Part shown: piece by piece, positions 19,704 through 22,646 of the stretch | Numbering within the stretch: the first letter of the stretch is position 1 | How the letters are laid out: every line of letters begins with the position of its first letter | Source of the DNA: an uncultured Planctomycetota bacterium | GTDB lineage: Bacteria > Planctomycetota > JAJSAM01 > JAKLKS01 | Length of the DNA stretch: 64,000 nucleotides | NCBI GenBank assembly: GCA_964370855.1 | Contig: CAYJMF010000001.1 | Span: 5,905-69,904 of the forward strand | Direction of reading: 5' to 3' | Program-made: the position numbers and the translations under genes | Notes under the pieces: generated by a model | What the model saw: only the letters and a program-made list of their open reading frames with translations | What the model was told of the DNA's origin: nothing | Database searches by the model: none

Positions 19704-21413
19704 TCACGACGCCTCCCCGAAGAGCCTTCCGGGAAACACACTCGATGAACTGGACGGCGTGGCGATCGCCGCCATGGCGTCTTCCCTCGCCTTCCGCAGG
19801 CGGGCTAGGGTCTCTCTGTACTCCCGGGCCTCCGCCATCGGGGCGAACTCGATCTTCAGTTCCTTCTGGCGGAAGAAGTCCTCGATCTCCCGCAGCGGGA
19901 CCCGGAAGAACTCCTTCCTCTCGTTGACCAGGTTCAGGCGTCGATCCTGGAAGCGCCGATGGAGTTCGCTCTCGAGGCCCGGCGCGTCCTCGGAGAAGAC
20001 GAGCCCGTGGATGTCGAACTCGAAGGGGACGGAGGCGTCGCCGAGCTCCTTCACACGCTCCCGAGGTTCCAGGCGGCGGGTCATCCCGATCTTGACGACA
20101 TCCTCCCCGAAGGAGCCTGGATTCGAGATGACGTAGACATGGCCCGACCGGGTCATCTGCGCCCGCGAGATCGCCCGCTCCTTCGTTCGATGGGCCTCCT
20201 CGAGCTCCAGCTCGAGCCGCTTCACCTTATCGCTCATCTCCGCCAGTTCGGCCCCGCGGGCGGCGGCCAGCTCCTTCCGGGCCTTCTCCAGGGAGCGCTC
20301 GTGCTCGCGCTCCTCGTCCTCCGCCTCCTCCTGGGCCCGTTCCAGTTCTCGCTGGGCCTTCTCCTCCTCCTTCAGTTGTGCCCGCAGCCTCCGCTGTTCC
20401 TCGACCTCCGCCCGCTTCTTCTCCTCCATCTCGTGGTTGAGGCGGAGCTCCTGCAGCCTGAGTTCCCGGTACTCCGGGGTGATGCTGATCCTCATCACGC
20501 CCCCCAGCTGGTTGATAGCGTCGAACCCCTTCCGGATCCGCTCCTCCATCTTCGGCGCGTTATTCCAGGCCACCTTCGCGATGCAGGCGTCGCACTCCCC
20601 GTTGAAGGCTCGGAGGAGGAGCTTACCGTACTGCTTCTGCATCCGCTCGCCCTCGGATCGGCTGTCCCCGATGGTCCACGCTACCCCGTAGTGGACATGG
20701 CCGCCCTGCTTCGTGATCGCCTTCTGCTGGAGCCAGACCATCTCCAGTTGCTCCTTGTACTCCCGGGTGGTCGCGAAGTCGTAGTGGGGCTTGTAGATCC
20801 CGAAGGAGATGTCCTCGATGTTCTCCTCGAGGAGTGAGACCTCGTGCGTGAGGCGATCGAAGACCTCCTTCGCTTTCTGGTACGCGCCCGCCAACGCCTC
20901 CTGGCGGGCGGCCGCTTCGACCTCCTTCCGAACCGCGTCCTGTCTCGCGATCTCGGATTCCTCCCTGACTTTGGCCGCCTCGGCATCAAGCCTGGCCCTG
21001 GTGACTTTCGCGTCCTTCAGTATCTCGGCCCTTGCGTCGTCCAGCGTCCTTCGGGCCATTTCGAGCTCGGCGTCTGCGGCGGCTCGCCGGTCCGCGGCTT
21101 CCTTCCCAAGGGCAAGACGTTCCGCTTCGAGCCCCTTCCGGATCCTGCCAGCCTCTTCCTCGAGATCGAGGACGGGGGCGAAGTGCGCCCGAACGGCTTC
21201 ATGCTCCCTTTGGAGTTCCGCAAACCGAATCCGGTTGGCGCTTGCCGTCTTCCCGAGAACAACGGCTGCGCCCACGGCAAAGACCGTGGTGGTCCAGAGG
21301 ATGACTTCAATCACCAGTCCCTCCTGGAGGGACTGGTGCCCGCACGGATTGGCCCATTCCGCTCTCCATGTTCCCGCGTCCCCGGGAACGATAGCCGGAA
21401 CCGGGAGGCACAT
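19704..21413 (-). CDS. TM helix + coiled-coil + DUF4041 + T5orf172 (GIY-YIG-like) domain protein; candidate abortive-infection/anti-phage protein
   Basis: ATG at 21413 (MCLPVPAIV...); the track extends to 22217 as upstream read-through. N-terminal TM LVIEVILWTTTVFAVGAAVVLGK, then an Ala/Glu/Arg coiled coil, then a DUF4041-like region (GIYKPHYDFATTREYKEQLEMVW...), then a C-terminal T5orf172 domain (VYVISNPGSFGEDVVKIGMTRRLEPRERVKELGDASVPFEFDIHGLVFSEDAPGLESELHRRF). Confidence 0.8.
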   Translation of the reverse strand: MCLPVPAIVPGDAGTWRAEWANPCGHQSLQEGLVIEVILWTTTVFAVGAAVVLGKTASANRIRFAELQREHEAVRAHFAPVLDLEEEAGRIRKGLEAERLALGKEAADRRAAADAELEMARRTLDDARAEILKDAKVTRARLDAEAAKVREESEIARQDAVRKEVEAAARQEALAGAYQKAKEVFDRLTHEVSLLEENIEDISFGIYKPHYDFATTREYKEQLEMVWLQQKAITKQGGHVHYGVAWTIGDSRSEGERMQKQYGKLLLRAFNGECDACIAKVAWNNAPKMEERIRKGFDAINQLGGVMRISITPEYRELRLQELRLNHEMEEKKRAEVEEQRRLRAQLKEEEKAQRELERAQEEAEDEEREHERSLEKARKELAAARGAELAEMSDKVKRLELELEEAHRTKERAISRAQMTRSGHVYVISNPGSFGEDVVKIGMTRRLEPRERVKELGDASVPFEFDIHGLVFSEDAPGLESELHRRFQDRRLNLVNERKEFFRVPLREIEDFFRQKELKIEFAPMAEAREYRETLARLRKAREDAMAAIATPSSSSSVFPGRLFGEAS

Positions 21414-21466
21414 CAATGACGGGCTGGATTCCCCGGTGCCCGGGATCGGAAACAAGGGGGCGTCGC

Positions 21467-22294
21467 CTAGGTTCCCTTCTGCGCCTCCTCTGAATCGTGG
21501 CCCTCGGGACCATCCGGTGCCTCTGGAGGTTGTCCGGATTCCTCGCTTCCAAGGGTGCTGGGGGGCGCGATATCCTCCTTCGGGATATCCGTCCGCGGCT
21601 TCCCGATGCGGCGGGAGGGGTAGAGGTCCTCGGCTACGAGTTCCAAGTGGGCACTGATGTACTCGACCTCCCGGGATGCATCCCCGACGGGGACCTTCTC
21701 GTCCCTGTCGTTGAATCTGGGCCTCGCTCCCTTTGCTGCCTTGATGACGGCAATCAGGCTCGCCTCGAGCCCCGGCAGCCGGGCCGGACTCGATGGGAAA
21801 ACGAGAGTCAGGGAAGTAGCCGATCCAAGAGCCTGTGCCAGCTTGACATTCTTCATAGGGTCCAGGCGGGCCTTGGACTTCCCCATTCCGACGTAGAGGA
21901 ACCTCTCCGGTCGAAGGGACCATGCGACATAGCACTGTCCTCGGTTGGGAATGCTCCTGTCCGCGATCAGTTCTCTCACCCTCCTCTTCACGATGTGCCT
22001 TCGCGACTCGACGTTTCCCGAGCACATGAAGTGAGTCTGTGAGTTTGCGCGCTTCGGTTTGAACAGTACCTCCTCGACAATGGCGCATGCGTCCAGTACC
22101 GATGCCGAGGTCCGGATCTCCTGGGACAGTCGATGCCGACGCTTCTCCGTCGGCTTGGACTCGAACCCACCCCATCTGACGGCGGCCTGGGTCAGTCGGG
22201 CCAACGCTGCGATGCACCTATCGAGTTTCCGCGCGGTCGGACGCTTGACCTCCCGGAGCATCCGCCTCAATCGCACTTCGAACTCATTGGCCAT
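21467..22294 (-). CDS. hypothetical protein with GIY-YIG-like nuclease motif
   Basis: 275 aa. GQCYVAWSLRPERFLYVGMGKSKARL resembles the GIY...YIG hairpin, and downstream LEASLIAVIK...RPRFN carries the conserved Glu/Asn positions. Immediately upstream of the DUF4041-T5orf172 gene on the same strand. Confidence 0.5.
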   Translation of the reverse strand: MANEFEVRLRRMLREVKRPTARKLDRCIAALARLTQAAVRWGGFESKPTEKRRHRLSQEIRTSASVLDACAIVEEVLFKPKRANSQTHFMCSGNVESRRHIVKRRVRELIADRSIPNRGQCYVAWSLRPERFLYVGMGKSKARLDPMKNVKLAQALGSATSLTLVFPSSPARLPGLEASLIAVIKAAKGARPRFNDRDEKVPVGDASREVEYISAHLELVAEDLYPSRRIGKPRTDIPKEDIAPPSTLGSEESGQPPEAPDGPEGHDSEEAQKGT

Positions 22295-22421
22295 GCTCCC
22301 CTCCTCGGGTCGCCCTCTCGCGTTCGCCTGTTCCCCTTATCCACCGGCCCCCTCTCGGGACAAAGGCAAATGATACGAGTCGTCTCTGTACGTATCGTCT
22401 CTGCCTTCCTAACTTCCTAGC
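22295..22421. promoter_or_regulatory. divergent promoter region with direct repeat (TCGTCTCTG x2, 8-bp spacer)
   Basis: acgagTCGTCTCTGtacgtaTCGTCTCTGcc lies between the XRE gene and the divergent GIY-YIG-like gene. Candidate operator. Confidence 0.35.
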
Positions 22422-22646
22422 GTGGCGAAGATCCCCATCCAGGTCGAGTTCGGGAAGCGCGTCCGCGCGCGCCGCGAGAACATGGGCATCACCATGGAGG
22501 TGCTCGGCCACCGCTCCGGCCTCCACTGGACGTTCGTGGGTCAGGTGGAGCGCGGGGAGAGGAACCCCACCCTCCTCACGATGGCGCGCCTCGCGAAGGG
22601 GCTCGGCTGCGACCTCGCCACCCTGACTCGCCGACTTCACGAGTGA
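22422..22646 (+). CDS. XRE-family (Cro/C1-type) HTH transcriptional regulator
   Basis: 74 aa; RARRENMGITMEVLGHRSGLHWTFVGQVERGERNPTLLTMARLAKGLGCDLATL is a canonical HTH_XRE. Divergently transcribed from the GIY-YIG-like/T5orf172 pair. Confidence 0.75.
   Translation: MAKIPIQVEFGKRVRARRENMGITMEVLGHRSGLHWTFVGQVERGERNPTLLTMARLAKGLGCDLATLTRRLHE

Follow-up and report, generated by a model that had tools for sequence, protein, structure and literature searches.

We analysed a 64-kb stretch of DNA (64,000 nucleotides, hereafter the window) from an uncultured Planctomycetota bacterium (contig CAYJMF010000001.1), focusing on a locus at window positions 19704–22646 that encodes a homologue of the anti-phage nuclease SNIPE, a second protein with a GIY-YIG fold and an XRE-type regulator. 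Three real genes were found within these positions. The original prediction for this locus, made by reading the sequence, had described three genes, with the XRE gene divergent from the other two and a direct repeat in the intergenic region, and all of these elements were present. The features are as follows.

19704..21314, minus strand: gene of the SNIPE (PD-lambda-1) homologue, 536 aa
21312..21338, minus strand: perfect 13 + 13 nt palindrome over the Shine–Dalgarno (SD) sequence and GTG start codon of the SNIPE gene (inverted-repeat scan, 100% complementary)
21315..21466, minus strand: spacer or leader from the 275-aa gene to the SNIPE gene, 152 nt
21467..22294, minus strand: gene of the 275-aa GIY-YIG-fold protein, undescribed family
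22295..22421, no strand: divergent spacer separating the 275-aa and XRE genes, 127 bp, read from the sequence
22374..22403, plus strand: tandem 15-bp direct repeat, candidate operator (TACGAGTCGTCTCTG / TACGTATCGTCTCTG)
22422..22646, plus strand: XRE/Cro-C1-type helix-turn-helix (HTH) gene, 74 aa, Pfam HTH_3
22949..24076, minus strand: flanking IS1595-family insertion sequence, context only (40-nt terminal inverted repeats, transposase profiles)

An 837-aa open reading frame (ORF; 22217..19704, minus strand) was rejected as the model of the large gene: its first 301 codons are spurious and share DNA with the 275-aa gene, read in a different frame. The SNIPE gene truly begins with the GTG at 21314, five bases after AGGAGG, and encodes a protein of 536 aa. 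On more than 30 public contigs from this organism, gene callers settled on the same start, and in the closest relative of the locus (L025) no in-frame ATG, GTG or TTG occurs from the upstream stop codon to the equivalent GTG. This start was adopted because the ribosome-binding site, the public gene calls and L025 agree. The 275-aa gene begins with ATG, with GGAGG 6 nt before it, and is a real gene, given its 76 relatives and a ratio of nonsynonymous to synonymous substitution rates (dN/dS) of 0.42 against L025. The XRE gene has a GTG start with no recognisable SD sequence upstream.

PD-lambda-1 was discovered in E. coli by functional selection (Vassallo et al. 2022, PMC9519451), and the later work that characterised it gave it the name SNIPE (Saxton et al. 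2026, PMC13190303). The E. coli protein is a single-pass inner-membrane protein whose cytoplasmic DUF4041 domain binds DNA and probably also the phage tape-measure protein, and whose GIY-YIG domain cuts phage DNA during injection; one gene suffices, and the defence is direct, so that infected cells survive (PMC13190303). Its N-terminal region is hypervariable, and the protein is toxic only when the transmembrane anchor is removed (PMC13190303). More than 7,900 SNIPE homologues are known.

The 536-aa protein of the window matched the PADLOC PD-Lambda-1 profiles PDLC03976 (E = 1.3e-153, profile positions 49–479 of 491) and PDLC03977 (E = 3.7e-147) as well as phrog_1847 of PHROGs (1.4e-141). DUF4041 (PF13250) spans aa 231–286 with E = 7.6e-23 (80.6 bits, cut-off 27; profile positions 1–56 of 56), and the T5orf172/GIY-YIG nuclease domain at the C-terminus (about aa 391–482) was matched by the Pfam models T5orf172 (PF10544, 7.6e-17) and MUG113 (PF13455, 2.7e-17). 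A coiled coil lies between the N-terminal transmembrane helix and DUF4041. The anchor was judged by Kyte–Doolittle hydrophobicity, the criterion for SNIPE being one transmembrane helix in the first 70 aa, as found in 59% of homologues; the protein has a single hydrophobic segment at about aa 2–20 (mean 2.05), followed by the basic residues K22, R28 and R30. All nuclease-domain columns conserved in at least 95% of the SNIPE family are kept (G391, Y394, N398, K408, G410, T412, R413, R414, R420, E448, N464, E468, F469 and F470). Given the single hydrophobic segment and the retention of all these columns, the protein appears to be an ordinary, intact member of the SNIPE/PD-lambda-1 family. E448 would correspond to the catalytic E414 of E. 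coli SNIPE, the two having been equated without a direct alignment. The predicted transmembrane, coiled-coil DUF4041–T5orf172 defence protein was thus recovered by the PF13250 and PF10544 searches. However, the label "Abi-like" that came with it was wrong, because the large protein corresponds to SNIPE, a single-gene nuclease of direct defence that spares the infected cell (PMC13190303).

The 275-aa protein encoded upstream of SNIPE had no relevant match among the Pfam, PADLOC, NCBIfam and PHROGs profiles. A word-indexed search of 5.8 billion proteins returned the protein alone, and three proteins when a profile was used, while an exhaustive HMMER search of 1.84 billion cluster representatives (E ≤ 1e-3) returned 77 proteins including the query. 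The 76 relatives are mostly 215–245 aa long (best E = 9e-40). In an alignment of 50 sequences, Y122 and G136 are invariant, and D68, R118, W125, P129, Y134, R143, L152, P167, E177, P192 and N195 are at least 90% conserved, giving the consensus RGFVYVAWxxRPExFxYVGKAxSxxRL...LEAS...PxxN. The conserved residues follow the canonical GIY-YIG order (Tyr / Tyr-x-Gly / Arg / Glu / Asn). The "GIY...YVG" motif of the window protein reads CYV (120–123)...YVG (134–136), and the residues of the catalytic set are all kept (Y122, Y134, G136, R143, E177 and N195). We take their spacing to be compatible with that of Y19/Y29/R39/E76/N88 in UvrC, a comparison by order and spacing rather than by superposed coordinates.

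The AlphaFold2 model of the single sequence had a pLDDT of 41, and the model built with the alignment had a pLDDT of 88.3 and a pTM of 0.79. The modelled protein opens with long antiparallel helices (aa 4–41 and 47–78), continues with a strand and a helix and then forms a beta-beta-alpha-alpha-beta-alpha-alpha core (aa 120–224); its parts can be described as a helical hairpin (aa 4–78), a GIY-YIG core (about aa 118–225) and a disordered, acidic, Pro-rich C-terminal tail (aa 229–275). Foldseek searches with this model returned the UvrC GIY-YIG domains of B. caldotenax and T. maritima with TM-scores of 0.64–0.71 (target-normalised), and phage GIY-YIG endonucleases from the viral library. At the sequence level, none of 50 family members matched the GIY-YIG Pfam models (PF01541, PF10544 and PF13455) at E ≤ 10, and hmmsearch against PDB with the full and the trimmed family alignment gave no GIY-YIG match. 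Profile comparison with hhalign gave marginal matches over the GIY...YVG hairpin, both for the SNIPE nuclease domain (P = 0.021) and for UvrC (P = 0.011 over 9 columns). Because these sequence-level tests failed or were marginal, the protein was placed in the superfamily by fold and motif only, and according to the model it is a member of an undescribed GIY-YIG nuclease family. Accordingly, the GIY-YIG assignment proposed for it earlier held for structure and motif and failed for PF01541 and every other sequence profile.

We then compared the neighbourhoods of both families. Loci of the 275-aa family, drawn from GTDB genomes, JGI metagenomes, IMG/VR and exact-protein look-ups, comprised about 17 independent loci with GC contents of 41–66%, including metagenome-assembled genomes labelled Nitrospiraceae, Myxococcales and Pseudomonadota. 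Neither SNIPE (hmmsearch, E ≤ 1e-3) nor a relative of the XRE protein (phmmer, E ≤ 1) was found at these loci (L003–L017 and L026–L032), at least nine of which have more than 1.5 kb of downstream DNA, enough to show SNIPE. All-against-all BLAST of the loci revealed no recurrent neighbour. The adjacent genes were partly of the mobile or defence type (integrases, Rep proteins, an excisionase-type HTH protein, FRG together with AbiTii, and small ORFs in a prophage-like array) and partly housekeeping genes (ketopantoate reductase, MatE, thioesterase, TonB-dependent receptor and glycosyltransferases).

On the SNIPE side, a search of genome contigs with a single SNIPE protein as query returned no related loci. 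Among the SNIPE relatives examined, four of five were alone, without a 275-family gene; the relatives at 59–60% identity (L019–L024) had neither a 275-family gene nor an XRE gene, and their contexts were variable. The sole relative that keeps the pair is the closest one, L025 (85% amino acid identity), in which the gene directly upstream of SNIPE, truncated where the contig stops, encodes a protein with 58% amino acid identity to the 275-aa protein. The pairing is lineage-specific and not a property of either family. These neighbourhoods do not support the idea of a self-contained module, since about 17 loci of the 275-aa family were without SNIPE or XRE and four of five SNIPE relatives were without the 275-aa family. 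The original prediction had named two outcomes as telling against it, namely a lack of significant GIY-YIG similarity in the 275-aa protein and a lack of the gene pair at homologous loci: the similarity exists structurally, and homologous loci are generally without the pair.

Two of the neighbourhoods of the 275-aa family have a distinctive content. On the metagenomic contig L030 (3023–5534), the family gene directly precedes FRG-domain and AbiTii genes, and the group lies between an excisionase-type HTH gene and Rep_1, resembling a small mobile defence cassette. On the related contigs L013 (1053–2986) and L015 (553–5502), the family gene has downstream of it a gene for a DUF5907-repeat protein (459 and 946 aa, a wide difference in length) and then one for a Por_Secre_tail protein, an arrangement resembling a variable secreted-repeat locus.

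The neighbourhoods also bear on whether the 275-aa gene serves defence. It might instead encode a selfish, free-standing endonuclease of the homing type, or a mobile element's nuclease for DNA processing, and have come to lie beside SNIPE by chance, with XRE as an unrelated regulator of the island. The gene is solitary and sporadic, occurs between unrelated genes in phyla with GC contents from 41% to 66% and is often found beside integrases, Rep proteins, excisionases and prophage-like ORF arrays; its viral structural matches are phage GIY-YIG endonucleases, and free-standing GIY-YIG homing endonucleases are well known. However, tblastn with a typical family member found no match in 50,697 phage and 72,556 plasmid records, and the core motifs are UvrC-like rather than homing-enzyme-like. 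In addition, the L030 copy beside AbiTii and FRG and the window copy between a Shango system and SNIPE both fit a defence role. We regard a non-defence role of this kind as unlikely.

Between the window and L025, the synonymous divergence (dS) was 0.52 and 0.71 and dN/dS was 0.16 and 0.42 for the SNIPE gene and the upstream gene, respectively, the latter being less constrained. Because dS is similar for both, the two genes were co-inherited as a block. A different reading of this conservation is that, in this lineage, the 275-aa protein and SNIPE form an XRE-regulated two-nuclease system, co-transcribed from an XRE-controlled promoter and cooperating; the soluble nuclease could dock by its hairpin or acidic tail on the SNIPE coiled coil, or could degrade DNA that has escaped SNIPE. 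In favour of such a system, the genes are on the same strand with a 152-nt spacer without a predicted terminator, and the pair and the proximal leader are kept in L025 at similar dS despite 15–42% protein divergence. Furthermore, the window and L025 members share the disordered acidic Pro-rich tail, whereas most family members are without it. On the other hand, SNIPE works alone in E. coli (PMC13190303), and elsewhere the partner is missing, both at about 17 loci of the 275-aa family and at four SNIPE loci. A single syntenic relative is explicable by common descent alone, and the comparison of 77 family clusters with more than 7,900 SNIPE homologues means that the pairing is at most rare.

The leader of the SNIPE gene bears on the same question. 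Sliding identity with L025 was about 80% over the proximal ~100 nt, compared with about 55% just upstream. No sigma-70-like promoter and no intrinsic terminator were found in the 152-nt spacer by an E. coli-type consensus scan, which is uninformative in high-GC DNA, and Rfam gave no match over 19400–23000. The palindrome at 21312–21338 pairs the SD sequence GGAGGG with the GTG start of the SNIPE gene, and RNAfold gave −24.7 kcal/mol (z = −3.1) for positions −40 to +13 of the gene. In L025 (690–716), the outer 7 bp of this hairpin are kept, with one compensatory A-T to C-G double change. The hairpin is absent from four more distant SNIPE loci, and sequestration of the ribosome-binding site was rejected as a general SNIPE trait. 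Judging from these two sequences, the palindrome may hold back the translation of a nuclease that could be toxic; alternatively, it is a candidate operator. The enclosure of the SD sequence and start codon in a hairpin suggests regulated expression and is, to that extent, a further point for the two-nuclease system. Weighing both sides, we consider the XRE-controlled, co-transcribed system a minority explanation, and cooperation of two nucleases as such in this lineage seems unlikely at best. The leader also contains two copies of a TTCCCG-N6-CGGGAA-like palindrome, 58 bp apart (21371–21390 and 21429–21448), and only the proximal copy is present in L025.

The 74-aa XRE protein matched Pfam HTH_3 (1.9e-10) and HTH_31 (6.3e-08). 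Its best PADLOC matches were four Control_protein profiles (E = 2e-12 to 7e-10, including 2.1e-12, 6.8e-11 and 4.2e-10), and all its NCBIfam matches were below the cut-offs. The motif TCGTCTCTG occurs twice in the divergent spacer, within the 15-bp tandem TACGAGTCGTCTCTG / TACGTATCGTCTCTG at 22374–22403. The two copies are identical at 13 of 15 positions (87%) and end 18 nt before the XRE start codon; by a rough estimate, the chance of such a tandem in the 127-bp spacer is about 1e-3. No further copy with up to 2 mismatches was found in the 64-kb window, including the region upstream of SNIPE. The spacer 22295..22421 gave no E. coli-type promoter match, in a scan that is again uninformative at high GC, and is presumed to hold the promoters and an operator. 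A search of 22280–22440 for inverted repeats such as C-boxes (seed 6) found none, leaving the direct 15-bp tandem, and there was no methyltransferase among the neighbouring genes scanned. The XRE protein would work as a small repressor of the Cro or C type, and membership in the C-protein (controller) class is not demonstrable from these data.

These profile matches raise the alternative that XRE and the 275-aa protein are what is left of a controller-regulated restriction–modification (RM) system with a GIY-YIG restriction endonuclease of the Eco29kI/Hpy188I type, whose methyltransferase was lost or displaced by the IS1595 element. Apart from the RM control proteins among the best profile matches of XRE, the existence of GIY-YIG restriction enzymes and the position of the IS1595 element directly beside XRE agree with this alternative. 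Nevertheless, no methyltransferase lies beside any of about 17 loci of the 275-aa family, the insertion sequence interrupts a different gene that converges on XRE, the putative C gene and the nuclease gene are divergent with no inverted C-box found, and an active orphan restriction endonuclease would be intolerable to an unmethylated host. An antitoxin of a type II toxin–antitoxin system was also considered for XRE; the genes are divergent, and the score for TIGR03070 was 34.5 bits, below its cut-off of 71.65. Because of the gene orientation and the absence of partner genes, both readings were rejected, the RM remnant being highly improbable.

The locus lies in a region with the marks of an integrated element. 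A tRNA-Gly(CCC) gene (2882–2956, plus strand) is followed by a tyrosine integrase gene (3149–4717, minus strand; Phage_integrase, 1.1e-22), and between about 5 and 61 kb of the window the GC content falls from about 0.73 to 0.57–0.69. Given the tRNA-Gly gene, the integrase and the GC drop, the whole locus is probably carried on a ~55-kb genomic island integrated at tRNA-Gly. A complete Shango system (SngABC, 26421–33692, minus strand) was identified by PADLOC, with E values of 4e-84 for SngA, 7e-180 for SngB and 6e-281 for SngC. It is a separate three-gene system 4 kb upstream of the SNIPE locus on the same strand, with a BACON-domain gene and the IS1595 element in between. Because Shango adjoins the locus, the region is a bona fide defence island, and the defence-island setting suggested beforehand was confirmed by Shango, an Abi_alpha protein, the tRNA-Gly gene with its integrase and the GC drop.

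The IS1595 element is bounded by 40-nt inverted repeats (22949–22988 and 24037–24076, 90% complementary) and encodes a transposase with DDE_Tnp_IS1595 (9.8e-26) and Zn_ribbon_IS1595 (3.4e-10) domains. It abuts the XRE side of the locus and is inserted in a 281-aa ORF (23746–24591, minus strand) that converges on XRE; the remainder of this ORF is probably at about 22948–22745. At the N-terminus of SngA (ORF of 1,227 aa; gene call of 1,198 aa) there is an additional region with a match to mREase_IV, a profile of type IV methyl-directed restriction enzymes (1.4e-22, aa 125–426), possibly an unusual fusion. Directly downstream of SNIPE, three co-oriented genes (15598–19538, minus strand) encode proteins of 226, 181 and 894 aa with no PADLOC match and no significant Pfam match, apart from weak similarity of the 181-aa protein to DUF6998, and could be a candidate uncharacterised defence operon. 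The island also encodes a 1,528-aa subtilase and, after it, an AAA ATPase weakly similar to nSTAND3 (34002–39793, plus strand), a 1,902-aa DUF4011/AAA_11/AAA_12 helicase with an MTES_1575 restriction endonuclease domain and DUF3320 (46041–51749, minus strand), and the Abi_alpha protein (55552–56208, minus strand).

Taken together, we favour, as the probable reading though with considerable doubt, that these are adjacent but separable nuclease genes in a ~55-kb tRNA-Gly-integrated defence island and not one obligate module. By homology, the SNIPE protein would be anchored in the inner membrane by its N-terminal helix, with the coiled coil, DUF4041 and the nuclease domain in the cytoplasm, and would cut phage DNA as it is injected, allowing the cell to survive without a partner. 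The 275-aa protein would be soluble, combining the helical hairpin with a GIY-YIG domain in which the motifs resemble those of UvrC and the catalytic set is complete; most likely it is active as a DNA nuclease on its own, possibly in defence borne by mobile genetic elements (MGEs) or in conflict between such elements. Its gene would have been joined to SNIPE only in this lineage and co-inherited since. XRE would be a controller- or Cro-like repressor that probably binds the tandem 15-bp repeat and regulates its own gene. It would set the expression of the 275-aa gene and, with no intervening terminator, may reach SNIPE by read-through, in which case the gene pair would be under XRE control; we infer nuclease activity, repeat binding and these transcription units from the layout and the motifs.

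Several observations weigh against this reading. The pair and the leader are conserved in the sole close relative, and no terminator or promoter was detected between the genes; for these reasons, co-transcription or functional coupling is possible in this lineage. The contigs that carry this XRE gene are all from one organism, so that its link to the pair has no comparative support; the direct repeat and the divergent gene orientation also depart from the usual setting of controller proteins. Moreover, in the window 275-aa protein, Met replaces the Lys that follows YVG in the family and in UvrC (YVGMGKS, compared with YVGKAxS), and Asn replaces the common His of HGKL, a position filled by His or Asn with a Gly after it in about 90% of members.

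SNIPE is already characterised, and its occurrence at this locus does no more than add a high-GC environmental bacterium to the range of the family. New are a GIY-YIG family that is rare (77 clusters in 1.8 billion representatives), is absent from Pfam, NCBIfam, PADLOC and PHROGs and combines an intact catalytic motif with an unusual domain order and a distribution on mobile elements and in defence islands, and a SNIPE gene behind a regulator and a structured leader that hides its SD sequence and start codon. The family is a candidate single-gene nuclease effector, and the leader could show how cells restrain a nuclease that is toxic when mislocalised. A bolder proposal, that the family comprises new soluble GIY-YIG effectors against phages or MGEs, recruited here as a cytoplasmic second nuclease with SNIPE under a controller-like XRE, strikes us as improbable. 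If true, cooperation of the 275-aa protein with SNIPE would amount to a two-tier system, "cut at the gate, cut inside". Neither the GIY-YIG family nor the SD-hiding leader would strongly surprise a specialist, and both are worth following up.

Among known systems, the nearest relatives of the 275-aa core are the UvrC GIY-YIG domain (PDB 1ycz and 1yd6) and the wider superfamily (T4 EndoII, 2wsh; I-TevI; Eco29kI). By comparison with these, the GIY-YIG domain is C-terminal, after a ~75-aa helical hairpin and a strand-helix linker, and UvrB-binding, Endo V-like and HhH domains are absent. The protein also has no NUMOD or other DNA-binding module, and its gene is solitary and lies in variable, often mobile contexts.

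XRE resembles the C proteins of RM systems (C.PvuII, C.AhdI and C.Esp1396I) as a single-domain HTH_3 protein of ~75 aa whose gene adjoins a nuclease gene. Several C genes have leaderless transcripts, and the lack of an SD sequence before XRE would fit such a transcript. C proteins normally bind inverted C-boxes, and their genes lie upstream of and co-oriented with the nuclease gene. Unlike them, the XRE gene points away from the nuclease gene and has the IS1595 transposase gene as its other neighbour, its upstream repeat is a direct 15-bp tandem rather than an inverted C-box pair, and it has no accompanying methyltransferase.

The SNIPE homologue agrees with E. coli SNIPE over its full length (N-terminal single-pass transmembrane helix, long helical region, DUF4041 and C-terminal GIY-YIG/T5orf172 nuclease), in its conserved catalytic residues and in its position in a defence island. 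It differs in that it comes from a high-GC environmental bacterium and in that its transmembrane helix begins at residue 2, leaving almost no periplasmic N-terminus. The host-side partner of E. coli SNIPE is ManYZ. Two further traits, absent from the account of E. coli SNIPE (PMC13190303), are peculiar to the window homologue: its SD sequence and start codon lie inside a perfect 13-bp hairpin, and upstream of its gene there are a second GIY-YIG gene and, in divergent orientation, the XRE gene.

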